This document shows positions 16-21,392 of a stretch of DNA of 64,000 bases, in pieces. Under the pieces are notes generated by a model that ran no database searches, had not been told where the DNA came from, and worked only from the letters and a program-made list of their open reading frames with translations. The translations under genes and the position numbers were made by a program. Numbering within the stretch: the stretch's first letter is position 1; the number at the start of each line of letters is the position of its first letter. The stretch is from Candidatus Pacebacteria bacterium CG_4_9_14_0_2_um_filter_40_15 (GTDB lineage Bacteria; Patescibacteriota; Microgenomatia; UBA1400; PJMF01): the NCBI GenBank assembly GCA_002788675.1, contig PFRS01000005.1, positions 131,731 to 195,730 on the forward strand, in the 5' to 3' direction.

Positions 16-1488
16 TTGTCCTCATCAGAACTTGGCGATTTATATCACTTCCCATTTACCAAAACTACTAAAACAGAGGATATGCAAAAACAGTTTAGTA
101 AGGAATTACCTGCACCACTGTCACTCAAAAAAGGGAACAAACTTGATGTAGTTTTTGCTCAAAATACCTATGCTAACTCCAAGACTTTGATTGGTTTATC
201 TGAAGATGAGCGCAGAAGACATATGTATATCTTGGGAGCAACTGGAACAGGAAAATCAACAATGCTTTTGAGCATGATTAGCTCAGATATTCAAAATGGC
301 AAAGGACTAGCGGTGGTCGATCCTCATGGAGATTTGATTGAGCAAATTCTTCATGTAATCCCAAAAGGTCGAATACAAGATGTGGTCTACTTTAACCCTG
401 ATGATATTGAATACCCAATGGGAATTAACCTGCTCGAACTCTCTGAGGGTTTACGTGAAGAGGATACTACCAGAGAAAAAGAATATATTGCTGAAAGCAT
501 TATTTCCTTATTCCACAAGATTTATACTGAAAAATATTCTGGGCCAAGAATGGAGTATATTCTCAGAAACACCATTCACACTGCTTTTACTGTTCCAGGC
601 GCAACGCTGTTTACGGTGTACAAGCTTCTGATTAACACCGAGTTTAGAAAATCGGTAGTTAAAAACCTGACTGATGAAAACTTAAAAGACTTTTGGAAGT
701 TTGAGTTTGCAAAGGCTGGTGATTATCAAAAAGTGAAAATGATATCGCCAATTACAAACAAGATTGGCCGTTTCTTATTTTCTCCTACTGCAAAACGAAT
801 CCTAGAGCAAGAAAAATCAACGATTAACTTTGAGCAGATTATGAATGAGGGCAAGATCTTGCTTTGTAATTTATCCAAGGGAAAACTTGGTGAAGATAAC
901 TCCAAAGTATTTGGGGTAGTTGTTATGGCTAAACTGCAATTAGCTTCTTTAAGACGTGCTCGAATGGCCGAAAAAGATAGAAAAGATTTTTATATGTATG
1001 TAGATGAATTCCAGAACTTTGCTACTCCTGCCTTTGCACAGATATTGTCTGAGGCTAGAAAGTACAGATTGGGAGCAATTCTAGCTCATCAGACAACTTC
1101 GCAGTTAGAAGATAAATCACTGGTTAATGTAACTTTGGCTAATACAGGCACAGTTATTTGTTTTAGAACAGCTAACCCAGAAGATGAATCTGCCATACTG
1201 CCTCAGTTTAGACCATATGTGGAGCAGGGGGATATTGCTGGGTTGCCGTCATACAGATTCTTTATGAGATTGGGTGCTCTCAATCCCGAAGAGCCTTTTT
1301 CTGGAATTACTATGCCTGTTGAGATAGGAGAGAATAAAAAAATGGTGTCTGCTGTGGTTGAGAGTTCTAGATCCAGGTATGCGATGAAATATGCACCTCC
1401 AAAAAGACTGGAGAGTTATCAATATCAACCAAAAGTTAAGAAGGTAATAAAACCAAAGCAAAGCGTAGGATATTCAGCTTTACCATAA
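16..1488 (+). CDS. Type IV coupling protein-like ATPase (VirD4/TraG/TcpA-like), N-terminus probably outside the window
   Basis: Walker A 'GATGTGKST' and Walker B-like 'YMYVDEFQNF'. The reading frame is open to position 1 and the ORF track starts at a TTG, so it is likely 5'-truncated by the window edge. Lies next to relaxase-like and ArdC-like genes. Confidence 0.5.
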   Translation: MSSSELGDLYHFPFTKTTKTEDMQKQFSKELPAPLSLKKGNKLDVVFAQNTYANSKTLIGLSEDERRRHMYILGATGTGKSTMLLSMISSDIQNGKGLAVVDPHGDLIEQILHVIPKGRIQDVVYFNPDDIEYPMGINLLELSEGLREEDTTREKEYIAESIISLFHKIYTEKYSGPRMEYILRNTIHTAFTVPGATLFTVYKLLINTEFRKSVVKNLTDENLKDFWKFEFAKAGDYQKVKMISPITNKIGRFLFSPTAKRILEQEKSTINFEQIMNEGKILLCNLSKGKLGEDNSKVFGVVVMAKLQLASLRRARMAEKDRKDFYMYVDEFQNFATPAFAQILSEARKYRLGAILAHQTTSQLEDKSLVNVTLANTGTVICFRTANPEDESAILPQFRPYVEQGDIAGLPSYRFFMRLGALNPEEPFSGITMPVEIGENKKMVSAVVESSRSRYAMKYAPPKRLESYQYQPKVKKVIKPKQSVGYSALP

Positions 1489-1500
1489 ACTAAATGGCTA

Positions 1501-2019
1501 CTATTCTAATCTCTGAATTTTTATACTTCCATTGCTTTCAGACTTCCAAGTAATCCATATCTCATAGAAATATTTTTCAAAAAAACCATCTGCTCGAAAA
1601 GAAATGTATTCTTCAACATAATTTTTTACCACATGATCTTGCAGTAATGGACTTTGAAGATTGCATAAAAGCAATATTTTTCCAGAAGAGCCACCATACT
1701 TTCCTTGATTAAGTTTTGATAACTTTATTCTAATAGAATTCTGCAAATTCTCTAATGTACAAAGTTTGATATTTGCTTTACTGCTAACTATTTTATTTTG
1801 GGCATCTGACCACAATTTTTCAGCTTGGCATGAATTGTCATAAACACCTAATAATTCGATTGACAAGTTGTTGCTACAAATACAATCAGGTTCCAATGTA
1901 TTGGCATTTCCGGGTCTAATTAATTGATAGTTACAACTATGTTGGAAATTATATTTAGATAGAAATTCTTGACATACTGCTAGTTCATGTTGTTGCTTGA
2001 GATTTGAAACATTATTCAT
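1501..2019 (-). CDS. hypothetical Cys-rich protein
   Basis: 172-aa ORF with no recognisable motif; divergent from the replication-relaxation gene. Confidence 0.35.
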   Translation of the reverse strand: MNNVSNLKQQHELAVCQEFLSKYNFQHSCNYQLIRPGNANTLEPDCICSNNLSIELLGVYDNSCQAEKLWSDAQNKIVSSKANIKLCTLENLQNSIRIKLSKLNQGKYGGSSGKILLLCNLQSPLLQDHVVKNYVEEYISFRADGFFEKYFYEIWITWKSESNGSIKIQRLE

Positions 2020-2090
2020 TTCTATTCGTCTTTCATTGTTTACAACTGAATTATACCTCTAAATTTATCCATAATTTTGGTTTAAAAACT

Positions 2091-2235: not shown

Positions 2236-3006
2236 ATGGATACCATAACAAATAAACAACTAGAAATTCTCAATCTAATATATCGCTTCCGTTTCCTAAA
2301 TAGAACTCACTTGCAAACTCTCCTCAATCATAAAGACACCAACCGAATTAATATCTGGCTTAAAGACCTTGCTAATAAAAACATCCTTGGTAGAATCTAC
2401 TCAACTAAGTTAAAAGAAAATACTAAACCAGCAATATATCATCTAGCTACTAAGTCTAGAAAAATACTTCTAAACCAAGAAGACATAAACGAAAAAATTC
2501 TCAAACGAGCCTACCGAGACAAAAACGCCTCACAAAAACTTATAGACCACTGCCTTTTTACTACCCACTTTTATCTATTACTTAAAGAACAATCACAAGT
2601 AAACAACCAAGAACTTCATTTTTATACTAAAACTGATCTAGTCGATCACACATATCTACCCTACCATCGCCCAGATGCATACATCGCTCTTGAAGATAAG
2701 GAGAATTACATCAAGCGCTACTTTCTAGAAATCATTGATGAGGGTACACCCCGGTTTATGCTTAGAAAAAAAATCTCACAATATGTTGATTACTTTGATG
2801 AAAACATTTGGAAAAATAGAACCTTACATAACAACCCATCACTATTATTCATCTGCCCCAATCAATATATTAAAGATTTCCTCAACAAACATATTGCACA
2901 AGTATTGGAGGAGGAAACTTCAGACTTACAATTTTTCTTAAGTCTGAAGTCGGACATTCAAGCAGAGGGCATTACGCCCTCTACTTGGCAACTGGTTGCA
3001 GAATAG
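2236..3006 (+). CDS. Replication-relaxation family protein (plasmid/ICE relaxase-like)
   Basis: N-terminus 'TNKQLEILNLIYRFRFLNRTHLQTLL' matches the characteristic start of replication-relaxation (PF13814-like) proteins. Confidence 0.5.
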   Translation: MDTITNKQLEILNLIYRFRFLNRTHLQTLLNHKDTNRINIWLKDLANKNILGRIYSTKLKENTKPAIYHLATKSRKILLNQEDINEKILKRAYRDKNASQKLIDHCLFTTHFYLLLKEQSQVNNQELHFYTKTDLVDHTYLPYHRPDAYIALEDKENYIKRYFLEIIDEGTPRFMLRKKISQYVDYFDENIWKNRTLHNNPSLLFICPNQYIKDFLNKHIAQVLEEETSDLQFFLSLKSDIQAEGITPSTWQLVAE

Positions 3007-3163
3007 AACTATTTTTCTTGCTCCGATAACACCTCATAACCTTTTTGCATCATTCTATTTACTAACACACTCACAATCCCTTGCATATCACTTCTGGTGT
3101 AGTCATCTTGACTATCAATTAGTTCTAAAATTTCACTCTCAAATTCGTTTGTAATCCTTGGAT

Positions 3164-3946
3164 CTAGCATGTTAATTCCTCCTCTAGTAATACTTTTAGT
3201 ACTTTTTCTACCGTTCCTATTGCCTTAGTAACGGCAAGCAAGGGATCTTCTGCATATTGGCTGATATAGTTCCAAGCGTTACCGGTTGTATCTGCAAAGC
3301 CGTATAAATCCATAAGTACCACACTAGTAAACTCTGCTATCGTTTCTTGACCTGCATGCTGTCCACCCTTGAGTTCTCCATCGATTCGCGCATGGATAGC
3401 GTGTGCTAATTCATGAAAAAATATTCTCTCATCATGCGTGCCTAATCTGATTTTACTGCCATCAGCCAAACAGTCCCCCAGCTTATTATCTGCAACCGGT
3501 GCATATTCAACCGCTACTCCTAACTTTTGGGCTATTTCGTACAGTGGTGGGTACTTTATTGGATCATAGACAGTAAGACCGCTCTGACCCTCTGTACTTG
3601 AAGCTGCAAATACTGGAACAGTAGAAAAACCGATACAAGTATATTTTTCTTCTAGTTCTTCGCTATCTTGTTTTCGCATTCTCACCATCACGGGACGCAA
3701 GATATATACTGCTTTTTCGCCTTTCTTGACCATTCTACCTGCCTGTTCCCATTGTCTGTATCCTCTGCAATCTAGTTCACCAGATTGAGCGTAAGCAAGT
3801 ACTTTGTTTGAAAGACTCCACCTCATTGCTGGTGCAGTATCATCCAAGTGAATCCGTGCCACATTTGTAATTGGTGACAAGTCACCAGTTTTGAACTGCT
3901 GCAATACTTTTTTCATACTTTCTTCTGCTCTATGAGAAAACTTCAC
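3164..3946 (-). CDS. ArdC-like antirestriction protein (N-terminal ssDNA-binding DUF1738-like domain + zincin HEXXH metalloprotease domain)
   Basis: 'GYRQWEQAGRMVKKGEKAVYI' resembles the ArdC N-domain. 'FFHELAHAIHA' supplies the HEXXH zinc motif. Typical cargo of conjugative elements. The gene looks GC-richer than its flanks (visual impression only). Confidence 0.45.
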   Translation of the reverse strand: MKFSHRAEESMKKVLQQFKTGDLSPITNVARIHLDDTAPAMRWSLSNKVLAYAQSGELDCRGYRQWEQAGRMVKKGEKAVYILRPVMVRMRKQDSEELEEKYTCIGFSTVPVFAASSTEGQSGLTVYDPIKYPPLYEIAQKLGVAVEYAPVADNKLGDCLADGSKIRLGTHDERIFFHELAHAIHARIDGELKGGQHAGQETIAEFTSVVLMDLYGFADTTGNAWNYISQYAEDPLLAVTKAIGTVEKVLKVLLEEELTC

Positions 3947-4231: not shown

Positions 4232-6253
4232 CTACTCATACCGCAGTGCATTAAGGGCAGAAATTTTAGTGGCACGCTTGGCAGGATAAATGCCAGTAAG
4301 TATTCCAACCAATAATGAAAGAATAATAATTACCACAGTAAAAGAAGCTGGTATGTAAGAAATATCAACATATCCAACACCTTGAAAAACGGCAAATAGA
4401 GATAAGACCAGCCCAGCTAACTTACCAGCTAAAAACCCGGTTATAATACCTAGTAATCCACCCAAGATACCCATAATCATTGACTCTGTTAAGAATAATT
4501 CCTGGACTTCTGAAGATCTCATACCCATAGCTTTCATCAAACCAACTTCACGCGTTCTTTCTAATAAAGAAACTGTGAGAGTATTAAACATACCAAGTGC
4601 GGCTACTCCCAGGGCAATCATCCCCAGTACTGCCAAAATTACTCTAGTGGTTGAAAATAATGAATTAATTTGTTCCACTGTATCTGCTACAGATCTTGTA
4701 ACATAGCCCATTGCCTCGATTTGATGGCGAGTAGCTGACAAATCATCTTTATCCTTAACCACAACTTTTACCTGAGAATAATTTGTTATTCCAAGCGTGC
4801 GCAAATCCATAAATGGAACATAGAAGATAGGTGTTTTTTCCTCTGGTGTTACTCCTACAATTGTATATTCGGCAGGTGAAGATTCAATTTTTTCTGAAGA
4901 ATCTGAAAGTAACTCGCCAACAACTACAAATGAAGCGGTAAATTTCTTGCCAACTGCTTCATTTTCAGTAATTCCTAGTACCTGCAACATCGCTCTGTTT
5001 ACTACTGCTTCACGCTTAGCAGATCTTGCTAATTTAACTGTTTTGGTTTTTTCTGTTGTAACTTCTCCAGATTCCGAGGCAATCTCAACCCACTCCAATG
5101 AAGTTCCATTTGAGTCAGTTGTACCTGATATTTCTGTTGTGTCTCCCAAAACTGTACTAGAATTAATAGCTCCGTCCTCTGCAATAGTCATGCCAATTTC
5201 TGCAATGTAGCCTTCTAGCGAAAGTTGTTGTCCATCTTCACCACGCATTACCATATGAGTACCATCTTCACAGTCACCCTGCGATTCCGGGTCACATGAC
5301 TCTAGTTTCCACAATAATACAGAAGTTTTTACCCATTTTCCTAAAATAACATCATCTTTGGTTTTTCCAGAAGTACCTGCATCTGTATCACTTACATACT
5401 TCTCACCCCAAACTTCAGATCCAGAAATAGAATCAGCAACCTTCTTGGTATATCCTAAAATTTCTGAATCAGTTGTTGCATCTGCACGAACTTTAAGCCA
5501 AGTTCCTGAATCAATGGCAAAGGTAACATCTCTAATTTCTTCACCCCTTACATCAAAAATATTGTCTGCTTTCTCACCCATAATTTCAGTCACAATACTG
5601 CCAGCATCAGTGACTATTTCATTACTATCAAAAATCTTTCCTGTAGATGGTTGAATTGCAGACTGACGCAAATAATCAGAGGTAACTCCATAAACCGCCA
5701 TATCAGAAACAGAACTTTGATAGTTAACTCTACCTACCACTGCTATTAATGGTAAAGACATCTCAATTGCACTAATTTCTGAAAAATCATTCAAGGTTTT
5801 ATCTGTAATCTTGGCTTTACCTCCAGCTTGTGAAGAAACATCAGTTTGACGCATTTCTTCAAGTCTCGCCACACGGGTAACTACCAATTCTTGTAATCCA
5901 TATCCAATGGAAACCAAGAAGACAATTGAACCAATTCCAATCATCATGCCACCAATGGTAACAGTGGTTCTAGTGCTTTTTGATTGCATATTACGTATGG
6001 CAAGCTCGATTAAGTTAATTCTGGAGATTGTTTTATTGCGTTTATAGTCAAAAACCTTCACCGCTTTAGAATACACTTTGTGTAAAGGTGTGCTTAATTT
6101 TGGAGATATAAAACGAGAAATAATTGGCAATCTCAATATCCATGAAATAACTCTCGCAACTAAATAGAGCAAGAGTAGAAGAATAAATGTGGTTGTTTGG
6201 AACAAAGCTCCAGGAAAATTGCTGAATAGATTTTGTTTTAATATTCTAAACAT
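4232..6253 (-). CDS. ABC transporter permease, FtsX/MacB family, with a very large extracytoplasmic domain
   Basis: C-terminal FtsX signature 'LLERTREVGLMKAMGMRSSEVQELFLTESMIMGILGG' and N-terminal 'INLIELAIRNMQSKSTRTTVTIGGMMIGIGS'. The likely start is the ATG at 6253-6251, which overlaps the ATPase stop in an ATGTTTAG junction; the ORF track extends to 6304. Confidence 0.7.
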   Translation of the reverse strand: MFRILKQNLFSNFPGALFQTTTFILLLLLYLVARVISWILRLPIISRFISPKLSTPLHKVYSKAVKVFDYKRNKTISRINLIELAIRNMQSKSTRTTVTIGGMMIGIGSIVFLVSIGYGLQELVVTRVARLEEMRQTDVSSQAGGKAKITDKTLNDFSEISAIEMSLPLIAVVGRVNYQSSVSDMAVYGVTSDYLRQSAIQPSTGKIFDSNEIVTDAGSIVTEIMGEKADNIFDVRGEEIRDVTFAIDSGTWLKVRADATTDSEILGYTKKVADSISGSEVWGEKYVSDTDAGTSGKTKDDVILGKWVKTSVLLWKLESCDPESQGDCEDGTHMVMRGEDGQQLSLEGYIAEIGMTIAEDGAINSSTVLGDTTEISGTTDSNGTSLEWVEIASESGEVTTEKTKTVKLARSAKREAVVNRAMLQVLGITENEAVGKKFTASFVVVGELLSDSSEKIESSPAEYTIVGVTPEEKTPIFYVPFMDLRTLGITNYSQVKVVVKDKDDLSATRHQIEAMGYVTRSVADTVEQINSLFSTTRVILAVLGMIALGVAALGMFNTLTVSLLERTREVGLMKAMGMRSSEVQELFLTESMIMGILGGLLGIITGFLAGKLAGLVLSLFAVFQGVGYVDISYIPASFTVVIIILSLLVGILTGIYPAKRATKISALNALRYE

Positions 6254-7034
6254 GTTGTGTATTCCCAGATTTATCTTCAGATGTTTTAAGATCACCATTA
6301 CCACGTTTGCTTTTTAACTCAGTAAGTAAGGCTTGTTTATCTGATTCATCATATTCACCCACAACTTCACCATTAAACATCTTAATAGCTGTCTTAGCGT
6401 ATTTAATGTACTCAAGATCGTGGGTAACCATGACTATAGTTTTAGCGGTTTTTTTGTTTAGTGAGGATAAAAGTTGCATGAGTTCTTGACCAGATTCATA
6501 ATCAAGATTTCCAGTTGGCTCGTCGGCAATAATTACTTCTGGGTTTGAAACCAGTGCTCTGGCTAGTGAAACTCTTTGTTGTTGTCCACTAGAAAGTTCT
6601 GTAGGAATATAGTTAGACCATTCACTCATTTCTACCATATCCACAACTTCACGAGCTTTTTTAAGTGATTCAAGCTTACTAGCACCCAAAAGCAATAAAG
6701 GGAAAGCAACATTTTCAACAACAGTTAATGATTTAATCCAGTTTGGTTGCTGATACACCATACCAATGTGTTCTTTTCTAAAATCAGATCTATCATCTTC
6801 ATTATTTGAAGTATATAAATTTTTACCAGAAAAAAGAACGCTACCTTTATTTGGTGCCTCAAGGCCTAAAATCGTATGAAGTAGCGTTGATTTACCACAT
6901 CCAGATGGGCCAAAGATAACTAAAAAATCGCCACTGTTAATTTCTAGATTGATATCTTTTAAAACAGGCACATTTGCGCTAGCCACTACAAATGATTTAA
7001 AAAGATTTTGAACTTTAAATAATGCCTGATTCAT
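6246..7034 (-). CDS. ABC transporter ATP-binding protein (MacB/LolD-like)
   Basis: Walker A 'GPSGCGKSTLL', ABC signature 'LSGGQQQRVSLARAL', Walker B 'IIADEPTGNLD'. Confidence 0.8.
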   Translation of the reverse strand: MNQALFKVQNLFKSFVVASANVPVLKDINLEINSGDFLVIFGPSGCGKSTLLHTILGLEAPNKGSVLFSGKNLYTSNNEDDRSDFRKEHIGMVYQQPNWIKSLTVVENVAFPLLLLGASKLESLKKAREVVDMVEMSEWSNYIPTELSSGQQQRVSLARALVSNPEVIIADEPTGNLDYESGQELMQLLSSLNKKTAKTIVMVTHDLEYIKYAKTAIKMFNGEVVGEYDESDKQALLTELKSKRGNGDLKTSEDKSGNTQHV

Positions 7035-7035: not shown

Positions 7036-10000
7036 TTAGTTTTTTCCTAGTCTACTAAGGAAGCCAAAGGCTTCTTGTAAGTTGCTAATTACTAGGTTAA
7101 GGGCGTTTTCGGTGGTTTTTGGTGTAATGGTTACGGTGTCTATGGATTTAGCAATGTTCCCCGCGGTATCTTTAGACAACGCTCTTAAGTGATAGACCTT
7201 GCTTGGAGTAAGTCCTGAAATAATTACTAAATGATTGTAGGTAAGATTACTGTCTTCTTGAGTTTTTTGAGCATAAGTAACCCCCGTACCTTCACCAAAC
7301 TCGACTTGAGATGTTGCTGGTTCATCGGTGTTCCAAGAAACGATTAATTGAGCAGTGGATTCCTGTGCGGTACTCGCAGTTTGGGGAATAACTGAACCCT
7401 CCACAAAGAGTTTGCTAATTTGAGCAGGTCTGGTGTCGGTAGCAGTTGTAAGTCTTTGAGAGTCAGAAACTGCTTGGTTGCCAATTTTATCTCTGCCTTT
7501 GACCACCAAATTGTAGTTAGTTTGCGGAGCCAATCCTCGAATTATCATTTGATGCTCTCCTGAAATGAGATCAATATTAACCTCATCTTTAACTGCAGAC
7601 GGGTTGTTTTCTGGATAATAAGAAATAATAGAAGAAACTGCTGTGTTGGTGTTCCAAGTTATGAGCAGAGTTGATTGGGCAGTGTTAGACACTTGTTGGA
7701 TACGAACACCACTGATTTTAGGACGTGGTAGAGTTTCAAAATCTAGTACAGTTCCTTCATACTCTTCATCTTCACTATCAAAAGTATTTATTTTGTAGTA
7801 ATATTTCGTCCCATCTGCCAGACCTGTAAGCTCGGCAGTATAGGTAGTTTCGCTTGTTGAGGTAGACATCTCTTTAACTCCACCAAAATCAGAACTAGTT
7901 CCATAATAAACCTTAACTTTAGAGGCATCTTTGGAAGTAAACTCTATAATAGCGGTATCCAAACCTATATTTTTTGCGACAACATCTTTAACTGTTGGAG
8001 CAGGAGAGGTAGTAAACTCGTTTTCTTCACTGCTTCCAGTATTACCATCTTCATCTGTCCATTTGGCTTTGTAGTAATATTTTGTTCCTGGTTTCAGGCC
8101 AGTAAGATCAATTGAATGATTAGTGACTTGGTCGGAGTTACTTGGTTCAACATCATTGTACTTACCCCTACTAGTACCAAACTGAATTTTACTATCAGAA
8201 GTTCTAGAAGTTGACCAGCTTATTGTAGCTTTTTTGGTAGTAATATCACTTACCTCAGGCTCTGATTCTAAGCTTGGAGCAGATGTCCACTTGCCTGTTG
8301 GGGTAATAGTAACTGCATTTGTGCCACTGCTAGTGGCATTAGCGCCGTCTTTGGTATAAATCTTGTAATAATATTGTGCAGATGATGGAGTGGTATCTAC
8401 GTATGATATGCCACTAGTAGTTCCTACCTGCGAAAAAGTAGTGCCATCACTAGAGCGGTGTACTAAATAGGTTAGGTTTCCTGCTCCCTGATAGCTTGGG
8501 GCTGTCCAAGTAAGAGTTACATTCCACTGTTCTTGAGATTTAATAGAAGAGTCGGACGAAACTAGATTAGCAACATTATCTGGATCAGTAGAGTTAAGAG
8601 TAAACGTGCCGGTTATATAGTTAGATGGTGAATAATTAGGAGTACTCGCATCATCAATGGCCACTACATAAACTGTGTTAGTGCCTTTGTTTACATTTGG
8701 CAAAGCCCCAGCTGAAACTGTTGTACTGGTACCGTTATCAATATAGGTAGTGCTGTTACCTTGCAGAGTCGATAGGGTTGATGGTGGAGAAGTATTGACC
8801 ATGTAGTAATAATGTGTCACGGCTTGACCAGCACTTGGTGTTGCTTCTGGCCACGAGAGTGCAAAGCTGTTGGAGGTAGATGTTGATGGGGTGACTGTTA
8901 CATTCTCAAGCTCATCAAAAGCAGGAGCAGCCCCTCCATAAGACAAGTTACAGGTTCTATAAGTAGAAGCCGATGAAATATTACCAGAAGCATCAACTGA
9001 TCTGAAGTAGACAATATTATTTCCAGAAATAATTGAAGAACCATCTTGTTCCTGTGTGAGTGTCCGTGAGGTTTCACTAGTTGGCAGATAGTTATTTACA
9101 CCCAAGACCGATTCTGTGGTAGTTCCAAGCCAAGTTCCTGCAGTAGAGTTAATCTGATACTGCCAACCCAAAACGCCAGAATTATCATCTACTGTAGCGG
9201 CACTTCCAGATGTTGGCCAAGAAAAATTCATATCTGCCACATTAGAAAATGATCCAGAAGCACAAGAAATATATGATGTATTGGTTGGTGTAATGTTATC
9301 GAATCTAAATTGGAACTGCTCACTGGCACCTCCAAAAACTTGGCCTGCATTATCTATGGCTTTAATGTTTAAATAATAGGGATCACTAGAAGTAGTCAAC
9401 CATGGACTACCCTTGTAACTTGAGGTAGCAAAATCAATACTGGTGCTAGAGACTATAAACTGACAAGTAGTACCAGCGGTAGATAACGGGCTAGTTCCCA
9501 ACAATCCCTTACTTGTGGCAGGATTACCTGCACTATCAGTTCCTAAATACAAACAGTATCCTTTCAAACCACTCCCCCCAGCGGTATCAGCGCCAGCAGT
9601 CCAGGAAAAGTATGGTGACTCGTTCTTTGTCCAATCATTGGAGGACATACTTGTGCCGCCATTCGATCTAGTCATGGCAAGTGCTGAGGCGTTGGTATCT
9701 GGGGCAGTTGTATCGGTGGTTAAACCAATCGAGACATGAGGTAAATATGGCACATCAGCCCCACCTGAGGTGAATATTGCTTTGACAGAAATTTTGGTAG
9801 AAGTGATTGATAAAGCTTGCATTGCAGTTTGCGTTAACTGAGCAGGAGTATTCACATGGGTAGTAGTATTGCTAGCTGTTTGCCAATTTGCGCCGTCATA
9901 GTACTTCCAACTACCACCACTTTCACAAGTAGAACCATCATCGGTACAAAGTTGGTAGGAGATACTACTATTCGTGCCAGTTGTAGCATCCTGAGTACAA

Positions 10001-12623: not shown

Positions 12624-12660
12624 TTTAGACCCTTAATTTTGGAGTGATAACGACATAAAT

Positions 12661-13308: not shown

Positions 13309-14089
13309 GTCAAGGGTGAATCTTTTCTCAATTAAGATAACACAAAATGCCTAAACACTATTTATTTTCCGTAAGTAAATAATAGAGTAAGTAGGCATTG
13401 GCATGTTGCAAATGACCTTTAATTGATACTTTTGATTGTGTTAGCTCAAACTCGCTCAATTTCCCTTGTAAAAATTTCTTTTGTTTTTTCCTATACTTGC
13501 GTTGCATGTGCCTCAAAGTATCACCTCTCACCAAAACGTGATCATAAAAAATTCTATACCCCACAAACGGCACTCCATCAGTGACATTTTTAATTGTGTT
13601 TTTTTTGGGATGCAAACTCAAGCCCAACTTTCTATTTAAAAATTTCTCAATATCTTTATTTAACTGCTTCAGCTTCTTTTTATCTGGATGAATAATCAAA
13701 AAATCATCCATGTATCGAGCATACCAACGCTGTTTGAGGGTATGTTTTACGTATTGGTCAAGCTCATTTAGATAGATATTGGCAAAAAGTTGACTGGTTA
13801 GGTTTCCTATTGGTAAGCCTTTTCTTTCCCACTCCAATATAGGTGCATTTTCCTGATGGTTATTTTGATCACTGTTATTGAATTCAAAAAGTGAAAGTTG
13901 TTCGGGAATAGTTTTTTTAAAACTATTTTGGTGGATATGACTTGAAATATTCACCATATCTGCTTTTACTGAGTGAGTAACCACAATTCTTCTAAGAAGC
14001 TCGTTGGTTCTTGGGCAAGTTATTGATTTTTGCAGGATTTCTAGCAAAGTATCCCAGTGAATGTTTTGAAAATACTTATGAATATCACA

Positions 14090-14837
14090 GGGTCTTGTGA
14101 CGTTTAGCATACGTTAGTGTGTTAATATGGTTGTAAGATCAATGAAAAATAGATATTGCAATCGATCACGACTTAGTGAGCACAAATTTAGACAACTTTT
14201 ACAATGTTTTTGTGACGATTTTGACACAGTTTTAACAGCAAAAAGTGTTGGAATTTCTCGTGAGCATGTAACCAAATATTTTGGTGCAATTCGTTTTAGA
14301 ATTGTCGAATTAAGTCAGTTAGAGGGTAAATTTTCAGGAGAAGTTGAGGTAGATGAAAGTTACTTTGGAGCAAAAAGAATTCGAGGTAAACGAGGACGTG
14401 GTGCCAGAGGAAAAATACCCGTTGTTGGGGTATTAAAAAGAGGTGGAAAGGTTTACACAAAGGTAGTAAAAAACTGTTCGAGAGAACAAATACTGCCAAT
14501 TTTGAAAGGTAAAATACTTGAGGAATCAACCGTGTTTACAGATGGTTGGAAAAGCTATCATGGATTGATTTATCAAGGATTTCAGCACTATAGAATCTAT
14601 CATTCAAAGAATGAATTTGCTCGAGGAAAAAACCACATTAATGGTATTGAAAGTTTTTGGAGTTTTTGCAAAAGACGTATGGCAAAACAAAATGGTGTGA
14701 GAAAAGATAAATTTCTGCTACACTTAAAGGAATCTGAGTTTAGATGGAATCATAGAAATGAAATGTATAAAGTACTTTTGGACGACTTAAAATTTAACCC
14801 ATTGACGCTCTAAACGTCACAAGACCCTATCACATTG
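14090..14837 (+). mobile_element. IS1595-family insertion sequence (~748 bp) with 18-bp terminal inverted repeats GGGTCTTGTGACGTTTAG and flanking 7-bp direct repeat TATCACA (14083-14089 and 14838-14844)
   Basis: TIRs and TSD read directly at both junctions. The transposase ORF lies inside. Confidence 0.7.
14127..14813 (+). CDS. IS1595-family (ISXO2-like) DDE transposase
   Basis: 'EVDESYFGAKRIRGKRGRGARGKIPVVGVLKRGGKVYTKVV' is the characteristic IS1595 transposase core (EVDE-Y-GG-K ... G-K). Confidence 0.7.
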   Translation: MVVRSMKNRYCNRSRLSEHKFRQLLQCFCDDFDTVLTAKSVGISREHVTKYFGAIRFRIVELSQLEGKFSGEVEVDESYFGAKRIRGKRGRGARGKIPVVGVLKRGGKVYTKVVKNCSREQILPILKGKILEESTVFTDGWKSYHGLIYQGFQHYRIYHSKNEFARGKNHINGIESFWSFCKRRMAKQNGVRKDKFLLHLKESEFRWNHRNEMYKVLLDDLKFNPLTL

Positions 14838-15245
14838 CAACACATAGAGTTCTCTTTCTTTTCCATATATACATCTAGCAGCCATGAGAAATTTTTTGAT
14901 TCTGCTTGCTCCAAAGTGTGTTCCCTTATATTTGCGACAAGCATACGAATCAAAAATAAACTTTTTTTCAAATATTGGCTCAATTTGTGCCACAAGGGAG
15001 TGCTGAATTATCCTATCTTTAAATGCAGGCGCAGAAATTCTCCTTGTTTTGGGCTCAAAAATTGTAAAATTGGTGTAGGGCTGAGGATAATATTCACCAG
15101 ATAAAAGAAGCTGTCTTAACTTTAATATATTGCTCTCAATAAAGTATTCATACTCCGCAACACTAATTCTGTCTCTTTTGCCTTTTCTTGCTTTGTAAAA
15201 TGATTTGAGTAACATCTCAAAACTAGAAATTTTATCAAACATCAT

Positions 15246-15454
15246 CTTACATAGTATCCTTATAAGCCCACTTTCCTCATAACTAAAAACATATGTTGCT
15301 AGCTATGAGGATACAGGCTTTTTGTTTTCCCTCAAGAAATTTATATGCTTGAAAGAAAGAGAAAATCTTGTGATCATAATGATCCAGGACATATATCCTT
15401 AAACATATGCCACTCATCTGGCGAAGCCAAATCTTACATGGACTTAATATTAGT
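15246..15454 (-). other. DGR spacer region between TR and RT, containing an imperfect hairpin (cctcata...tatgagg)
   Basis: Its position corresponds to the structured TR-RT spacer of known DGR RNAs. Confidence 0.3.
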
Positions 15455-15572
15455 ATCACTGGCGCAACGAAACCCGATATTGTTGTTCTGATTTCCTGTT
15501 GTATTGTTCAAATTGAGAGCGAAAGGTCCAGCATTCGTTCCATTATTCCAATTACCGCCGCGGAGGAACGCG
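15455..15572 (-). repeat. DGR template repeat (TR), 118 bp
   Basis: Non-coding copy of the VR. In the VR frame it reads AFLRGGNWNNGTNAGPFALNLNNTTGNQNNNIGFRCASD, with AAY (Asn) codons exactly at the positions that differ in the VR. Confidence 0.8.
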
Positions 15573-15605: not shown

Positions 15606-15947
15606 CTATACCACTTTCATCCAAGCTCGTAGCATTCGAGCAATCTCATTCATTTTTTCTGCACCAAATGCATATTGTTTGATACTTTTAAATTTAAGAT
15701 CTTTAGTCAGTCGTAATAATATTCGCAAAGTATCTAGGTCATTAGAAATTAATTGTTGTAATTTTTGTCTTTCTAACCCTTTTAGACTATTGGCCTTTGA
15801 AACTGTTATAACTAAAGCAATTACCCTTTCTTCAATTGCTTTGCCTAAAACCATTCTATGACTTTTAGGGATACGGTTTACTAAAGGATAAAACCAAAGT
15901 GCTTGGTCATACGTTTTTTGGAAAATAAGTAATTTTTCACACATCAT
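15606..15947 (-). CDS. avd: Avd-like accessory variability determinant (four-helix-bundle family)
   Basis: 113 aa. 'IFQKTYDQALWFYPLVNRIPKSHRMVLGKAIEERV' fits the Avd / 23S-IVS four-helix-bundle family. Sits immediately 5' of the TR on the same strand. Confidence 0.55.
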   Translation of the reverse strand: MMCEKLLIFQKTYDQALWFYPLVNRIPKSHRMVLGKAIEERVIALVITVSKANSLKGLERQKLQQLISNDLDTLRILLRLTKDLKFKSIKQYAFGAEKMNEIARMLRAWMKVV

Positions 15948-16078: not shown

Positions 16079-16106
16079 TTGACTTCTCGAGAACTGTTGA
16101 TATAAT
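16079..16106 (+). promoter_or_regulatory. Near-consensus sigma70-type promoter (TTGACT, 16-bp spacer, TATAAT) upstream of the T4SS-like operon
   Basis: Read directly: 'ttgacttctcgagaactgttgatataat'. Confidence 0.4.
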
Positions 16107-16219: not shown

Positions 16220-16552
16220 ATGAGAAAACTCGTATTTCTTCAAAGTATATTTCTTACCTCTTTAGTTGTTGCAACTCCAGCATTTGCACAAACTGCCGAA
16301 GTTGGACAAATTCAATCATTCATCCAAAGTGTGATTCAAGTTATGGTCACGCTCTCTGGCTTTATTGCAGCAGGTTTCATAGTCTGGGGTGGCGTTGGCT
16401 ACATTACTAGTTCAGGAAACCCTGAATCACTCGAAAAGTCTAAAAAAACAATTTTATACTCAGCCATTGGCCTCACCCTTGTGCTTGGAGCATTCGTTCT
16501 TTCCAATATGGTTAGCCAATTAGCATCCACTGCTTTTGGTGCAGGAATGTAA
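16220..16552 (+). CDS. VirB2/TrbC-like pilin-type small membrane protein (signal peptide + two hydrophobic helices)
   Basis: Signal peptide 'ATPAFAQT', then two hydrophobic stretches. First gene of the T4SS-like operon. Confidence 0.4.
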   Translation: MRKLVFLQSIFLTSLVVATPAFAQTAEVGQIQSFIQSVIQVMVTLSGFIAAGFIVWGGVGYITSSGNPESLEKSKKTILYSAIGLTLVLGAFVLSNMVSQLASTAFGAGM

Positions 16553-16567
16553 GCGAAGGGATATGTA

Positions 16568-17869
16568 TTGATGCGAAAGGTACTCACCACCATTGGAATT
16601 ATTGCCACCTCATTCTTGTTTTTTAGTACTCCTGTTTTTGCACAAACTACCAATCCTGACATCCTCGAATACACCAACAACACTTTACAAATCATCACTC
16701 TTATTTCAACCGCAGCCGCGGTGTTTTTTTTGGTCAAAGCAGGGTATCTCTATATTACTTCATCAGGGAAACCTGAAGCTCTAGAATCTGCAAAGAACAC
16801 CATTAGAAACGCCATAATCGGCTTAACCTTGGTGTTGGCAGCAAATATAGTGACATCTGTCTTTCAGCACGCATTAAACTCTCAGACGACATCAGGAACT
16901 GGCACACCTATTGACGTTGTCAGTATTGAAACTGCTGAACCTTCTGAAGGCTTAACTCAGGTGCTTATTGATGCCATTGGTAGTTTTATTCAAAACATCG
17001 TGGAAAGCTCAACTGAGCCAATTGTGAATGGGGTGTTGGGCTACCTCACCACTACACCTACACTTTTGGATAATGAAGTAGTACGTAACTTCTGGTTTGT
17101 CACTGTTGGAATTGTTGACGCCTTGTTTGTCTTAGTGGTAGCTCTCATGGGACTGCAAGTTATGAGTGCTAGTACTTTTGGATTTGAAGAAGTTGAGATT
17201 AAACAGTTGTTGCCAAGGTTAGGACTGAGTTTTTTAGCTGCAAATATTTCACTCTTTTTGGCCGATTATGCCATTATCACTTGCAACGCCTTGGTTGAGG
17301 CTATACTAGACTCCACTGGAGGACTAAATCACGCTTGGATTCAAGCAGCATTTAATCCGACTGCAGTAATTTCTGGAACCACGCCACTCATCATTTTGAT
17401 TTTCATGGTTATGTTCTTGGTTGTCTCAATCGTGCTGTTACTCATGTATATCAGTCGCTTAATTATTATTTCCCTGGGGGCAGTTCTTTCGCCATTTATC
17501 TTCTTACTCTCAGCACTCCCAAAGTTTTCAGACCTCGCCTCAATTGCAATCAAGACATATCTTGTCAGCGTGTTTATCGTGTTTGTGCATGTGGTGATAA
17601 TTCAACTCGCTAGTTCGTTTTTGACCCTGCCTGAGCACAGTGAAAACTCACTTATTTCTATTGCCGTTGGCATTGGACTGTTTATCACCCTCCTCAAAAC
17701 TCCAAATCTGATGATGCAAATGGTCATGTACACCGCTAACTCTGGATCATTGAAAAAATTAGGAAACCAAATTATAAATGTGATGACAACAGATAACGCT
17801 TCAGTTGCAAGCAGAGCTCAGGCTCAAGACTCTGCATCCAAACTATCAAGAAAGGCAATAAAACTATGA
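16568..17869 (+). CDS. VirB6/TrbL-like polytopic membrane protein whose N-terminal ~100 aa is a paralog of the preceding pilin-like protein
   Basis: N-terminus 'STPVFAQTT...GYLYITSSGKPEALESAKNTIRNAIIGLTLVLAANIV' parallels the upstream ORF 'ATPAFAQTA...GYITSSGNPESLEKSKKTILYSAIGLTLVLGAFVL'. At least six further TM segments follow. Confidence 0.45.
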   Translation: MMRKVLTTIGIIATSFLFFSTPVFAQTTNPDILEYTNNTLQIITLISTAAAVFFLVKAGYLYITSSGKPEALESAKNTIRNAIIGLTLVLAANIVTSVFQHALNSQTTSGTGTPIDVVSIETAEPSEGLTQVLIDAIGSFIQNIVESSTEPIVNGVLGYLTTTPTLLDNEVVRNFWFVTVGIVDALFVLVVALMGLQVMSASTFGFEEVEIKQLLPRLGLSFLAANISLFLADYAIITCNALVEAILDSTGGLNHAWIQAAFNPTAVISGTTPLIILIFMVMFLVVSIVLLLMYISRLIIISLGAVLSPFIFLLSALPKFSDLASIAIKTYLVSVFIVFVHVVIIQLASSFLTLPEHSENSLISIAVGIGLFITLLKTPNLMMQMVMYTANSGSLKKLGNQIINVMTTDNASVASRAQAQDSASKLSRKAIKL

Positions 17870-18372
17870 GAAGCCGAGTCATACCCGCTCAAATAACCAC
17901 TGTAGAAGACAAAATTGCAGGTGATTTTAGTCTGACGCAAATTATGTTGTTACTGTTACCAGTCTTAATTGCTTCGTTTATTTACGCAATCCTTCCACCA
18001 AGCATGAGCTTTGTACTCTACAAACTAATCTTGGCGAGCATTTTTGCCATTGCAAGCATCACTCTGGCAATTAGAGTTAAGGGCAGAATTATTGCAAGTT
18101 GGCTTGTGGTCTTGATCCGATACAACATTAGGCCAAAATACTATGTATTCAACAAAAACTCTGCTACAAATCGAGAAATTATTCAACCTGAGGTTGAGAT
18201 TATCACTGTTGAAGAAAAAGAAACTAAAAGCGCTGATCTAAAAAGTATTCAGAACCTTGATATCAAAGATATTCTCAAACTTCGACACATTCTTGATACA
18301 ACAGATTTCAATCTAACCTACCGCTCCGGCAAGAAAGGAGGACTCAATGTGGCCTTTGAAAAAGTCTCTTAG
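17866..18372 (+). CDS. Small two-TM membrane protein (VirB3-like position)
   Basis: Hydrophobic N-terminal half; located between the VirB6-like and VirB4-like genes. Confidence 0.3.
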   Translation: MRSRVIPAQITTVEDKIAGDFSLTQIMLLLLPVLIASFIYAILPPSMSFVLYKLILASIFAIASITLAIRVKGRIIASWLVVLIRYNIRPKYYVFNKNSATNREIIQPEVEIITVEEKETKSADLKSIQNLDIKDILKLRHILDTTDFNLTYRSGKKGGLNVAFEKVS

Positions 18373-18967
18373 TAAAGCAAGTTCTCGCAATCAAATAGCT
18401 ATAAAAGAAGTGCGTGATGGCATTTTGGTTCTGCCAAATAATGAGCATCGTCTGGTAATCGAAACTTCTTCTGTGAACTTTGAACTTAAAAGTGAAGCTG
18501 AGCAGGACATACTCATAGATAGCTTTCAAACTTTTTTAAACTCACTCCCTTCTCAATTACAAATCCTCATTCGCATTCGAGAAGTAGACATTGATCTATA
18601 CGTGGATTCTATTGAGTTGCTAAAACAAAGTGAAGATGAAAAGAAGTACCTGGAACAAATTGATGATTACACACAATTTATCCGTCAACTCGTATCTGGT
18701 AACAAAATTCTTTCTCGCAAGTTTTACATTGTCTTACCTTACAAACCAGATTCCAAGAGCGATGTATTTGAATTAGCTCAAGCACAGTTAACCCTCACTC
18801 AAGATATGGTAATTAAATCTTTAGAAAAACTAGGTATGAAAGCTAGAAAACTAGATAGCCTGGAAGTCCTGCATCTTTTTTACAGCTTCTACAACAAAAA
18901 TCAACTCAAAACTCAAGAATTAACCAGTACTACTATGAAAGCAATATTGCAGCACAACTATGTTTAA
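18347..18967 (+). CDS. Hypothetical protein; possibly the detached N-terminal domain of VirB4
   Basis: 206 aa. Ends in an ATGTTTAA overlap with the VirB4 ATPase ORF; 206+604 aa approximates a full-length VirB4. Confidence 0.3.
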   Translation: MWPLKKSLSKASSRNQIAIKEVRDGILVLPNNEHRLVIETSSVNFELKSEAEQDILIDSFQTFLNSLPSQLQILIRIREVDIDLYVDSIELLKQSEDEKKYLEQIDDYTQFIRQLVSGNKILSRKFYIVLPYKPDSKSDVFELAQAQLTLTQDMVIKSLEKLGMKARKLDSLEVLHLFYSFYNKNQLKTQELTSTTMKAILQHNYV

Positions 18968-20774
18968 TACCGTTCAAACTCATTACCATAACTTACAAAA
19001 ATGGAAACGAAAAAAAGTCCGCAAGTTTCAAGCAACCCAAGAAAAGAAACGCCGTGAGCGACTCTCACTGCAGTTTAGTTTTGGTGAGCAAGATCAAGTT
19101 GATTTGATTTCCTATTCAGGACTCATGGAAGAATCAACCTACCTACAGATTGGTGATACGTATGTGAGAACTTTGTTTATTTCTGGTTACCCATATGTTG
19201 CCAATGTTGGATGGCTGAATATGCTGATTAACTTTAACCAAGATCTGGACATTTCATACCACATTGAGCAAGTTGATCCACTCATGGCCTTACCTAAATT
19301 AAATCGAAAAATTACTGAGCTTGAGTCAACTAAACGTAGTATGCTCAAGGCCGGAAAAGTAATTGGCTCTGAAATTACCGATCCACTTGAATCTGCTATG
19401 GAGCTCAAAGATAAAATTCAGCGAGGACAAGAGAAACTTTTTCAGATATCAATTTACATGACTCTGAGTGCAAGTAGTCTGGAGGAGCTAAACAAATCTA
19501 CACAAGTGCTAGAGACCATCATGTCCTCCAGGCTGTTTTACATTAAAAACGCCACTTTCCAGCAACTAGAGGACTTACAATCAACCCTTCCTAGAGGTGA
19601 AAACCAACTTGCACAAAAAAGAAATTTAGATAGTTCAAGTGCTGCACTTACTTTTCCGTTTGTGTCGTCTGAACTAGTGCAGGAATCTGGTATTTTATAT
19701 GGCATTAATAAATCAAATAACTCACTAGTCATTGTTGATCGGTTTTCACTTAATAACGCCAACTCAATTATTTTTGCTCAGTCTGGAAGTGGAAAAAGCT
19801 ACACAGCAAAGGTTGAGATCTTGCGCCAACTAATGCAACAAACAAAAGTGATTGTGATTGACCCTGAGCGCGAATATAAGCAACTGGCCAAATCTATTGG
19901 AGGTACATATATCCGACTTTCAGCAACTTCTAAAGAGAAAATCAACCCTTTTGATTTTTCTCTTAAATCTGTGACTGGTGAAAATGGACTAGCAGAACAT
20001 ATCCAAGACCTAACTGAAATTATTTCATTGATGGCAGGTTCTTTGAGTGACGAGGAACGAGCGGTGGTAGACAAGGCATTGATCGAAACCTACAAATCCT
20101 TTGGGATTAGTATGCGTAAGCGCAACTACGAGGTTGATCAAAAATTTCCTTTACTCAAGGACTTCTACGTAGTACTCAAAAAAATGAAGCAAAAAGAGTT
20201 GTGCCACAGGCTAGATAAGTTTGTGTCTGGATCACTCTCAAGCGTATTTGATTCGCAAACTAATGTTGATCTTTCCAATCGACTAGTGGTATTTGACATC
20301 AAAGATCTAGATGAATCTCTCAGGCAAATTATGATCTTAACCACTGCCAACTTTGTGCACTCTCAGGTAAAAAGTGATCCGCAAAAACGCATCTTGGTTA
20401 TTGATGAAGCGTGGTTGCTACTGCAACACGAAGAAAGTGCGCGGTTTTTGGCAGGTCTAGTACGGCGTGCCCGCAAGCATTACTTGGGTGTCACCTTAAT
20501 TTCTCAGCAAGCTAATGACTTTTTGAATCAAGAGTACGGCAGAGCCATTGCCTCACAGTCGTCACTACGAATCCTGATGAAACAAGATACTACATCTATT
20601 AAAAAAGTGGTGCAAGAATTTAACTTAAGTGAGTACGAACAACAGTTTTTACTAACCTGCGACCGAGGTGAAGCCTTGATCATTGCCGATCAAAACCATG
20701 TTGCGGTCAAAATTGTTGCCTCTGAAAAAGAACATCCAATGCTAACCACTGATCCGAAAGATTTATATCTATAG
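18960..20774 (+). CDS. virB4: VirB4/TrbE/CagE-family T4SS ATPase
   Basis: Walker A 'AQSGSGKSYTAK' and Walker B 'LVIDEAWLLL' (DEAW is typical of VirB4). Confidence 0.7.
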   Translation: MFNTVQTHYHNLQKWKRKKVRKFQATQEKKRRERLSLQFSFGEQDQVDLISYSGLMEESTYLQIGDTYVRTLFISGYPYVANVGWLNMLINFNQDLDISYHIEQVDPLMALPKLNRKITELESTKRSMLKAGKVIGSEITDPLESAMELKDKIQRGQEKLFQISIYMTLSASSLEELNKSTQVLETIMSSRLFYIKNATFQQLEDLQSTLPRGENQLAQKRNLDSSSAALTFPFVSSELVQESGILYGINKSNNSLVIVDRFSLNNANSIIFAQSGSGKSYTAKVEILRQLMQQTKVIVIDPEREYKQLAKSIGGTYIRLSATSKEKINPFDFSLKSVTGENGLAEHIQDLTEIISLMAGSLSDEERAVVDKALIETYKSFGISMRKRNYEVDQKFPLLKDFYVVLKKMKQKELCHRLDKFVSGSLSSVFDSQTNVDLSNRLVVFDIKDLDESLRQIMILTTANFVHSQVKSDPQKRILVIDEAWLLLQHEESARFLAGLVRRARKHYLGVTLISQQANDFLNQEYGRAIASQSSLRILMKQDTTSIKKVVQEFNLSEYEQQFLLTCDRGEALIIADQNHVAVKIVASEKEHPMLTTDPKDLYL

Positions 20775-21392
20775 ATGCATGCCATACTTACCACCCATAC
20801 CATCTGGTCATTTAGAAGAGAACTGCAGTTAGTAGCTTTTTCATTTCTGGTTTTGTTGTCTCTGCCAGTGATTGCAGTCATCATCCTGATGCACACCGGC
20901 ATCAATATTGTTTCTGATGCGTTGATTGAAGTGGTAGCAGAAACTCAAACCATTCTTATAAAAAATCCGGCTGATGGGTCTGTTGTAAAAGAAGTTTCTA
21001 AAAAAGTAGCTTGGCCTGTACAAGGAGTTACTACACTCGAGTTTGCGGGCTCAAGCAAATACCAGAAATTCCACGCAGGAATTGATATTGCAAATCCCCA
21101 TGGAAAAGTTGGTGACAAAATTTCACCATTTATGGATGGTACGGTAACCTATGCTGGTGAAATATTCTGGGGGTATGGCAAGCATGTAATTATTGATCAT
21201 GGTGACAATATTAGTTCTGTGTATGCACATCTCAATCGGATTAGTGTTTATGAAGGTCAGGAAGTGAAGGTGGCTGATACAATTGGGGAAATGGGTAGCA
21301 CTGGCTGGTCTACAGGGCCACATTTACATTTTGAGATTAGGGTGTATGGGGTGCCGGTGAATCCTAAAACAATTTTACAGAACACAAACTAA
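20775..21392 (+). CDS. M23-family peptidoglycan endopeptidase (T4SS-associated cell-wall hydrolase)
   Basis: 'HAGIDIANPHG', 'GKHVIIDHGDNISSVYAHL', 'GSTGWSTGPHLHFEI' are LytM/M23 motifs. Confidence 0.75.
   Translation: MHAILTTHTIWSFRRELQLVAFSFLVLLSLPVIAVIILMHTGINIVSDALIEVVAETQTILIKNPADGSVVKEVSKKVAWPVQGVTTLEFAGSSKYQKFHAGIDIANPHGKVGDKISPFMDGTVTYAGEIFWGYGKHVIIDHGDNISSVYAHLNRISVYEGQEVKVADTIGEMGSTGWSTGPHLHFEIRVYGVPVNPKTILQNTN

Follow-up and report, generated by a model that had tools for sequence, protein, structure and literature searches.

A probable integrative conjugative element at a tRNA-Glu gene of Candidatus Pacebacteria encloses a type IV secretion system, its coupling protein and a candidate relaxase

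Do the type IV secretion systems (T4SS) of Patescibacteria conjugate? The view that they have been co-opted by the cell rests on how rarely relaxases are found: only 103 Patescibacteria genomes carry one (58 MOBC, 39 near a gene for a type IV coupling protein, T4CP; PMC12102498). Here we present a locus that bears on this question, from Candidatus Pacebacteria bacterium CG_4_9_14_0_2_um_filter_40_15 (contig PFRS01000005.1, positions 131,731 to 195,730), analyzed as a stretch of 64,000 nucleotides that we call the window. A first-pass annotation had placed a diversity-generating retroelement (DGR) and a toxin-antitoxin pair inside a conjugative element, with the coupling protein, a relaxase-like protein and an ArdC-like gene at one side and a mating-pair formation operon at the other. 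We find that window positions 1 to 27481, together with about 2.95 kb to their left, probably form a ~30.4-kb island of the integrative conjugative element type, inserted in the 3′ end of a tRNA-Glu(CTC) gene in the chromosome of this ultra-small Candidatus Pacebacteria bacterium (Microgenomatia, Patescibacteria). By its anatomy the island is an integrative conjugative element, with an integrase, tRNA-derived attachment (att) repeats, a relaxase, a T4CP and a T4SS.

The window opens inside the island, and its left end was found on a public contig that extends further leftward (L005, on which window position 1 is position 7766). A search for an integrase and att sites identified the following features.

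L005:4742-4816, tRNA-Glu(CTC) gene (ARAGORN)
L005:4797-4814, left copy of the att repeat, about 2.95-2.96 kb left of window position 1
L005:4753-6333, minus strand, large serine recombinase of 526 amino acids, 1.4 kb left of the window
Between the serine recombinase and the T4CP, left of the window, open reading frame (ORF) of 63 amino acids
27464-27481, plus strand, right att repeat (attR core) GATTCCGCGTGGGGTCAC, an exact 18-bp copy of the tRNA-Glu(CTC) 3′ end

The 18-mer corresponds to the T-arm and the 3′ strand of the acceptor stem of tRNA-Glu. It was the single match outside the tRNA itself when the tRNA region was searched against 72 kb comprising the left flank and the window (blastn-short, E 2.5e-4), and it lies 229 bp beyond the start codon of PLD, a small gene at the right end of the island. 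Both conjugative halves and everything between them are enclosed by the two repeats, whereas the host side of the tRNA-Glu holds ordinary genes (TspO, MsrA, MsrB and a major facilitator superfamily transporter). The parts named in the first-pass annotation are in place, and the true ends of the element lie beyond them on both sides, about 2.95 kb left of the window and at 27481. Since the same DNA is found identically on many public contigs (to 1.19 Mb) named Candidatus Pacebacteria, we take it to belong to a bacterial chromosome of the candidate phyla radiation (CPR).

The recombinase shows the domains Resolvase (9e-33), Recombinase (5e-11) and Zn_ribbon_recom (3e-10) and the motif YLRVSTEEQ, and the 3′ end of its ORF is antisense to tRNA-Glu(CTC) with an overlap of 64 nt. 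No stop codon of this ORF precedes the att site, and the frame continues across the tRNA in antisense (L005:4753-4816), as in 11 other loci. Because of this, the C-terminal tail of the recombinase should differ between the integrated and the excised state, with 526 amino acids against a predicted 541 here and 524 against 581 in GCA_020631795.1. Judged from these reading frames, the variable tail could constitute an integration-dependent switch.

From the left, the island consists of tRNA-Glu, serine recombinase, 63-amino-acid ORF, T4CP, 172-amino-acid ORF, MOBC relaxase candidate and ArdC-like gene, followed by a first cargo slot, the T4SS operon, a second cargo slot, a helix-turn-helix (HTH) gene, a 69-amino-acid ORF, PLD, a 39-amino-acid ORF and the right repeat. 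Its backbone within the window is as follows.

1-1488, plus strand, VirD4-type T4CP, C-terminal 495 of 864 amino acids (Pfam TrwB_AAD_bind 4e-10, T4SS-DNA_transf, TraG-D_C)
1501-2019, minus strand, 172-amino-acid ORF between T4CP and relaxase, no Pfam or NCBIfam match
2236-3006, plus strand, MOBC-class relaxase candidate (Replic_Relax, PF13814 2.6e-13, profile positions 1-184 of 191)
3009-3170, minus strand, 53-amino-acid ORF called in public contigs, no family match
3164-3946, minus strand, ArdC-like protein, weakly assigned (ArdcN 22.8 bits, cut-off 22.6)
16079-16106, plus strand, T4SS operon promoter TTGACT-16 nt-TG-TATAAT (11/12 consensus matches)
16220-16552, plus strand, VirB2-like pilin of 110 amino acids (T4SS_pilin/TrbC)
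16568-17869, plus strand, pilin-domain/VirB6-like polytopic membrane protein of 433 amino acids (T4SS_pilin; weak TrbL_4 5.7e-4)
17866-18372, plus strand, PrgI-family (VirB3-like) protein (PF12666 2.6e-6)
18347-18967, plus strand, TrsD-like ORF of 206 amino acids, detached N-terminal part of VirB4 (NF045971 positions 11-179, 4e-13; TrsD 5.8e-6)
18960-20774, plus strand, VirB4 of 604 amino acids (NF045971, CD1110 family, positions 144-733, 3e-108; DEAW Walker B)
20775-21392, plus strand, M23 peptidoglycan hydrolase (PF01551 Peptidase_M23 1e-31)
26348-26554, plus strand, HTH_3 regulator of the right-end module
26551-26760, minus strand, 69-amino-acid ORF of the right-end module
26795-27235, minus strand, PLDc_2 nuclease-like protein (PLD) of the right-end module
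27228-27347, minus strand, 39-amino-acid ORF of the right-end module

All genes named in the first-pass annotation were recovered at the positions given there with profile support from Pfam, NCBIfam or PADLOC, including the partial VirD4-like ATPase and the replication-relaxation protein. The complete T4CP ORF (L005:6659-9253) starts 1107 nt left of the window, and its Walker A (GATGTGKST) and Walker B (YVDEFQN) motifs are invariant in the homologue alignment. The ORF that follows it is variable in position, L020 and L021 carrying other genes there. The next gene matches PF13814, which corresponds to the class that CONJscan calls MOBC (PMC5357655, Table 1; for MOBC see also PMC3424549), and would have the architecture of an N-terminal winged HTH followed by a putative PD-(D/E)XK-like core. 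PF13814 is matched by 24 of 26 positional homologues, and the motifs PDAY and KRYFLE are kept across all 26, but their alignment shows no clear (D/E)xK lysine of the canonical kind. A tblastn search of the relaxase against 72,556 plasmid records gave no match. Neither the relaxase nor the ArdC-like protein had a significant match to solved structures in single-sequence or profile searches, which returned only weak Rad4 matches (E 0.15-0.6); single-sequence AlphaFold models reached a predicted local distance difference test (pLDDT) score of 38.6 and 40.1, respectively. The ArdC-like assignment is weak: the HELxHxxH motif (HExxH metalloprotease-like) is invariant in three orthologues, but the match to ArdcN, the ssDNA-binding N-terminal domain of ArdC, is at threshold and spans only 46 residues, and none of the solved ArdC structures was matched in the PDB search.

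At the other side of the island, the near-consensus promoter reported earlier is real as a motif, and it overlaps the start (16098) of a DNA block conserved with relatives. The pilin, VirB6-like, VirB3-like, VirB4 and M23 genes are present behind it, the VirB6-like match being weak; the two pilin-domain proteins match T4SS_pilin at 8.5e-11 and 1.8e-11. One gene had been overlooked, the 206-amino-acid ORF at 18347-18967. This ORF matches the first part of an NCBIfam profile and the VirB4 ORF the part that comes next, so VirB4 is divided between two reading frames, as it is in systems with TrsD. The earlier assignment to a Gram-positive type of mating-pair formation agrees with the score of VirB4 against the CD1110 family (363 bits, NCBIfam curated cut-off 325). 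The M23 hydrolase is a functional stand-in for VirB1, and outer-membrane components (VirB7/9/10) were not detected in profile scans of the T4SS locus. The closest VirB4 homologues on plasmids are CD1110-family proteins of Bacillota and Actinomycetota (30-38 % identity), and VirB4 homologues at 70-97 % identity bear Patescibacteria names.

Is this arrangement a single unit, and does it recur? A scan of GTDB species representatives with a VirB4 alignment gave 80 loci, from Pace-, Davies-, Levy-, Roizman-, Shapiro-, Collier-, Gottesman- and Woykebacteria and WWE3, and a second set was obtained by scanning metagenome contigs with a T4CP alignment. The six-gene T4SS operon is colinear in the 80 loci wherever the locus is long enough, M23 follows VirB4 in all but one of them (79/80), and HTH and PLD lie 0.6-10 kb downstream of the operon in 52. 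T4CP and then the MOBC relaxase stand immediately upstream of the pilin gene in seven GTDB species (L043, L045, L050, L073, L083, L094, L101), three of which (L043, L045, L101) also have a serine recombinase. Among the closer T4CP-anchored metagenome loci, 16 of 34 have the relaxase downstream of T4CP on the same strand. The DNA block 26336-27330, at the right end, is kept in L010, L012 and L014.

Two relatives preserve both ends. GCA_020631795.1 has tRNA-Glu, an intact recombinase (missed by the gene caller), T4CP, a relaxase homologue and an ArdC-like gene at its left side and, ~34 kb off, the T4SS, HTH, PLD and then a 19-bp repeat that reproduces its own tRNA variant (CCCCG rather than CCGCG). 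L124 is a T4SS-less form of 11.6 kb, in which tRNA-Glu, recombinase, relaxase, T4CP and PLD are followed by a 16-bp repeat. Because the repeats equal lineage-specific tRNA variants while silent sites are saturated, integration, or excision followed by re-integration, would be younger than the splits between hosts.

Across both sets the recombinase is antisense over a tRNA gene in 12 loci (with an overlap of 56-65 nt in 11 and of 115 nt in one), and the targets are seven: Glu(CTC), Gly(GCC), Gly(CCC), Arg(TCG), Lys(TTT), Met(CAT) and Asp(GTC). These tRNA-overlapping recombinases form at least three clades. In L010, L031, L055, L060 and L088 PLD adjoins the recombinase, so that their gene order is that of the window circularly permuted. 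Two diverged T4SS copies (76-79 % DNA identity) share one contig in L026/L029 (CAJQIG010000001.1) and in L055/L061 (JBBDPM010000004.1), and four more genome bins have two copies on separate contigs. Modules are mosaic, the VirB4 of L026 being 95 % identical to that of the window and its PLD only 56 %. Such tRNA switching, permutation, double copies and mosaicism are the marks of a family of integrative mobile elements rather than of a core locus that stays in place. The first-pass annotation had held that a gene order universally conserved as core genome would speak against a conjugative element; the backbone order is indeed kept across Microgenomatia, but at varying tRNA genes and sometimes in two copies.

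Another architecture also occurs in other Patescibacteria, in which pilin, VirB6-like, PrgI, TrsD-like and VirB4 genes are directly followed by T4CP, often with PLD further downstream (L114, L115, L119, L122, L126, L135, L138, L149).

The serious rival to a conjugative element is a fully domesticated island. On that account Microgenomatia have fixed an ancient conjugative element whose T4SS now works as a core organelle of host interaction (epibiosis); the recombinase, T4CP and relaxase have ceased to mobilise the island and persist as relics or in other roles in the cell, and DGR and defence genes gather because the locus tolerates insertions. We regard this as unlikely, and several observations favour it and weigh against a mobile island. 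Of 3,035 Patescibacteria genomes, 2,417 have VirB4 homologues, which group into clades specific to each class (Quinonero-Coronel et al. 2025, PMC12102498); the T4SS of Patescibacteria has been read as co-opted and probably not conjugative, in connection with host-dependent growth (PMC12102498, PMC12857230); in Ca. Southlakia epibionticum the genes of the T4SS are reported to be essential (Wang et al. 2023, cited in PMC12102498), and a 2025 review stresses the essential T4SS genes of a Saccharibacterium (PMC12857230). Between relatives, all genes show saturation at silent sites (pS 0.63-0.88, Nei-Gojobori), and T4SS genes are under very strong purifying selection (dN/dS 0.02-0.16). The island is fixed in all sampled contigs: neither an empty site nor another context was found, the arrangement being the same in all 24 contigs for each of three proteins (the 314-amino-acid flank gene, the relaxase and VirB4). 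In viral contigs the predicted attP junction AGTACTCTTGGGGTGATTCCGCGTGGGGTCACCAAAGACGACACCCATCG and the predicted attB junction GGTTCGATTCCGCGTGGGGTCACATTATGTAATTTTGAC each had 0 matches. No oriT was found, the inverted repeats being short, inside or beside genes and none of them convincing, and in the available locus DNA of L014, L043, L101, L107, L108 and L116 the tRNA-end repeat was not found.

Residence points in the same direction. The island is syntenic in a distant relative: in GCA_964620965.1 it occupies the same MsrB-MsrA-TspO-tRNA-Glu context, ~35 kb from MetRS, and this shared context at a MetRS identity of only 68 % fits vertical descent. Its composition is that of the host (GC 0.381 against 0.374; 4-mer r 0.97 against 0.96 for the host control), so that the comparison of GC, GC3 and 4-mers with positions 36-64 kb, the region suggested in the first-pass annotation, revealed no difference between island and host. 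The island has thus probably been long resident in its lineage. Recent transfer was also considered, on the grounds that the identity of GCA_964620965.1 to the window is 95 % in VirB4 but 65-68 % in MetRS, which is encoded on the same contig, and was dropped since silent sites are saturated everywhere; the high identity of T4SS proteins reflects constraint.

Domestication nevertheless predicts that an unused integrase and relaxase should decay, yet both are intact and above MetRS in conservation. Amino acid identity is 76-77 % for the recombinase, 76 % for the relaxase and 82 % for T4CP, as compared with 68 % for MetRS, 66 % for MsrA, 58 % for MsrB, 57 % for TspO and 45 % for TatD in the same genome pair, which argues that recombinase and relaxase are still used. 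Nor should a neutral attR remnant of 18-19 bp keep matching lineage-specific tRNA variants at saturated divergence. The homologous recombinases at seven different tRNA genes, the two diverged copies on one contig in some genomes, and the permuted and T4SS-less (mobilisable-element-like) forms equally stand against a domesticated island.

It is very improbable that the locus consists of two neighbours, namely a ~7-kb mobilisable element (recombinase, T4CP, relaxase, ArdC-like gene) at tRNA-Glu and an unrelated chromosomal T4SS, with the repeat at 27464-27481 representing an older or accreted event: the T4SS-less L124 with 11.6 kb between its repeats, the position of most T4CP genes far from virB4 (PMC12102498), and the end of DNA homology with relatives at 27330, 134 bp inside the repeat, with extra copies of a 66-bp right-end sequence outside it, would suit this arrangement. 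Against it, the stretch from the ArdC-like gene to the T4SS has no further copy of the tRNA end (best stray matches ≤13 bp); three independent genomes, the T4SS-less one among them, have PLD as their final gene ahead of the repeat; 52/80 loci have HTH and PLD downstream of the T4SS operon; and T4CP and relaxase adjoin that operon in seven species.

The simplest reading is a lineage-restricted family of integrative conjugative elements with mostly vertical inheritance and occasional movement. In a transfer cycle, the serine recombinase would join attL and attR and release a circle, the relaxase would nick a putative oriT, and the T4CP would deliver the DNA to the monoderm-type T4SS; the incoming strand would be protected by the ArdC-like protein, and the recombinase would re-insert the element at the tRNA-Glu of the recipient. 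That the island still transfers is a proposition we hold at or a little short of even confidence. By analogy with what is reported for Saccharibacteria, the T4SS probably also serves the epibiotic lifestyle of the cell.

What does the island carry? Cargo occupies two slots, the first from the ArdC-like gene to the T4SS promoter and the second from M23 to the HTH gene.

4232-7034, minus strand, MacB-type ABC transporter (FtsX/MacB_PCD permease plus ATPase; Pfam), not in the same slot of relatives
7036-11613, minus strand, DGR target protein of 1525 amino acids, FGE-sulfatase/CLec fold with fn3 repeats (Pfam)
10459-10579, minus strand, DGR variable region (VR), inside the target gene
11841-13308, minus strand, AbiEii/AbiEi toxin-antitoxin pair (PADLOC AbiEii 1e-42, AbiEi 3e-28)
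13358-15245, minus strand, DGR reverse transcriptase (RT), 250-amino-acid C-terminal part and 142-amino-acid N-terminal part (RVT_1 3e-16)
14096-14823, insertion sequence (IS) of the IS1595 family, ~728 bp, splitting the RT gene, with a 228-amino-acid DDE transposase (DDE_Tnp_IS1595 4e-30)
15452-15572, minus strand, DGR template repeat (TR), paired with the VR
15606-15947, minus strand, Avd accessory gene (bAvd 1.7e-17)
21416-26320, plus strand, QatABCD anti-phage system, all four genes in order (PADLOC QatA 2e-271, QatB 1e-100, QatC 8e-185, QatD 6e-96)

Both slots differ in content in every relative examined. In place of the genes listed, the first slot of relatives is filled by genes for type I restriction-modification, by copper-resistance, Dsb and BlaR genes, or by genes of sugar metabolism and other metabolic genes; the second holds AAA_15/21 or SMC-like genes, or small ORFs. 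Because slot content is unrelated in relatives, the DGR is cargo, and with QatABCD here and other ATPase-type genes in relatives, the second slot behaves as a defence-gene hotspot. The earlier reading of the DGR, within its block with the ABC transporter and AbiE, as cargo is thus borne out by the variability of the slot; for horizontal arrival of the DGR, composition gives no signal except in the GC-richer target gene. No stretch is richer in GC than this gene (0.425), and its 4-mers resemble those of the host least (r 0.71).

The DGR has an RT and an Avd, and its TR and VR differ in an adenine-specific way: the two copies of 121 nt are 85 % identical, and all mismatches in the core are at TR adenines. 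The VR lies in the N-terminal third of the target (about amino acids 345-385), before the long fn3-like run, and not at the C-terminus. The RT is interrupted at LQCD|IHKYF by the IS, whose perfect 12-bp terminal inverted repeats are TGTGACGTTTAG, and the split is seen in all public copies examined. Split in this way, the DGR copy is probably inactive at present, despite the adenine-type variation of its VR. Avd-like genes also occur upstream of the T4SS operon in two more loci, L058 and L138. DGRs are known from conjugative elements or genomic islands, for example in Legionella pneumophila. As in islands of that type, Avd, TR, RT and a target of CLec fold form the cargo of a conjugative island; the present case differs in its CPR host, in the interruption of RT by an IS1595-family element and in the AbiE pair between target and RT.

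Sequences resembling the right end recur nearby. A 66-bp sequence, the core of the 39-amino-acid ORF, is present three times (27266-27330, 28606-28671 and 29871-29938) and has copies elsewhere (L014:16839-16906, L014:17998-18065, L010:15181-15281), all of which end exactly at GGGTCACA, a sequence similar to the tRNA/att core. Copy 2 includes the PLD ribosome-binding site and the first six PLD codons. The two extra copies lie outside attR and flank a Fic gene, with a gene for 314 amino acids between attR and copy 2, and in another genome a different Fic gene is likewise bracketed by two 66-bp copies. The copies may have been left behind by earlier right ends, or may mark junctions of recombination at pseudo-att sites. 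The Fic protein here is of the SoFic type (PADLOC 1e-49; 28782-29840), just outside the right repeat, and next after it comes a HIT-family gene in opposite orientation. Further along the window, positions 37065-40967 hold a 797-amino-acid double ATP-grasp/D-Ala-D-Ala-ligase-like fusion beside a methyltransferase and a Peptidase_S51 protein (cyanophycinase/dipeptidase E family), which may be a cyanophycin-like or peptide-ligase cluster.

How does the island compare with known conjugation systems? Conjugative elements of Bacillota with mating-pair formation systems of the FATA class (MPF-FATA) and large serine recombinases are established, for example Tn5397 with TndX. The island shares with them a monoderm-type T4SS, a CD1110-family VirB4, a VirD4-like T4CP, a serine recombinase and modular cargo. 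It differs from them in having VirB2-like pilins, which are absent from Gram-positive systems (PMC12857230), a relaxase of class MOBC rather than MOBT or MOBP, insertion at tRNA 3′ ends with the recombinase ORF antisense into the tRNA, and a VirB4 split into two ORFs. With the known MOBC relaxases (TraX of pAD1, MobC of CloDF13 and those of streptococcal PF13814 mobilisable elements, PMC5357655) the candidate shares PF13814 and a T4CP neighbour and would share an N-terminal HTH with a putative PD-(D/E)XK-like core; it is very divergent, with no plasmid or PDB match and no evident (D/E)xK lysine.

The T4SS itself has the content described for the Patescibacteria clade, that is, a VirB2-like pilin array, PrgI/VirB3, a TrsD-like ORF, VirB4 and a downstream peptidase replacing VirB1, likewise without outer-membrane components found, and its nearest VirB4 outside the CPR is of the monoderm CD1110 family at 30-38 % identity. 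In contrast to the account in PMC12102498, the operon here lies inside a repeat-bounded, tRNA-inserted island together with a recombinase, a T4CP and a MOBC relaxase. Integrases or tRNA insertion at these loci are mentioned neither in PMC12102498 nor in PMC12857230; relative to this literature, the delimitation of a T4SS locus as a tRNA-inserted island with a serine recombinase is new, as is a family that has switched its target tRNA genes.

At this locus and at least a dozen related ones, the T4SS operon sits in an island bounded by tRNA sequence and is physically linked there to a recombinase, a T4CP and a relaxase. This has a testable outcome, since the attP and attB junction sequences can be applied to existing metagenome reads, and the relaxase family can be used for re-screening CPR genomes. 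The island also explains the clustering of DGRs and defence systems beside T4SS in reduced genomes. More broadly, and on balance doubtfully, the near-universal, highly constrained T4SS of Microgenomatia may be, rather than a chromosomal organelle that has given up conjugation, carried and inherited as still-functional, tRNA-inserting conjugative elements, each with a serine recombinase, a T4CP and a divergent MOBC relaxase, that serve both epibiosis and DNA transfer, with the cargo slots as the main route by which DGRs and defence genes are exchanged.

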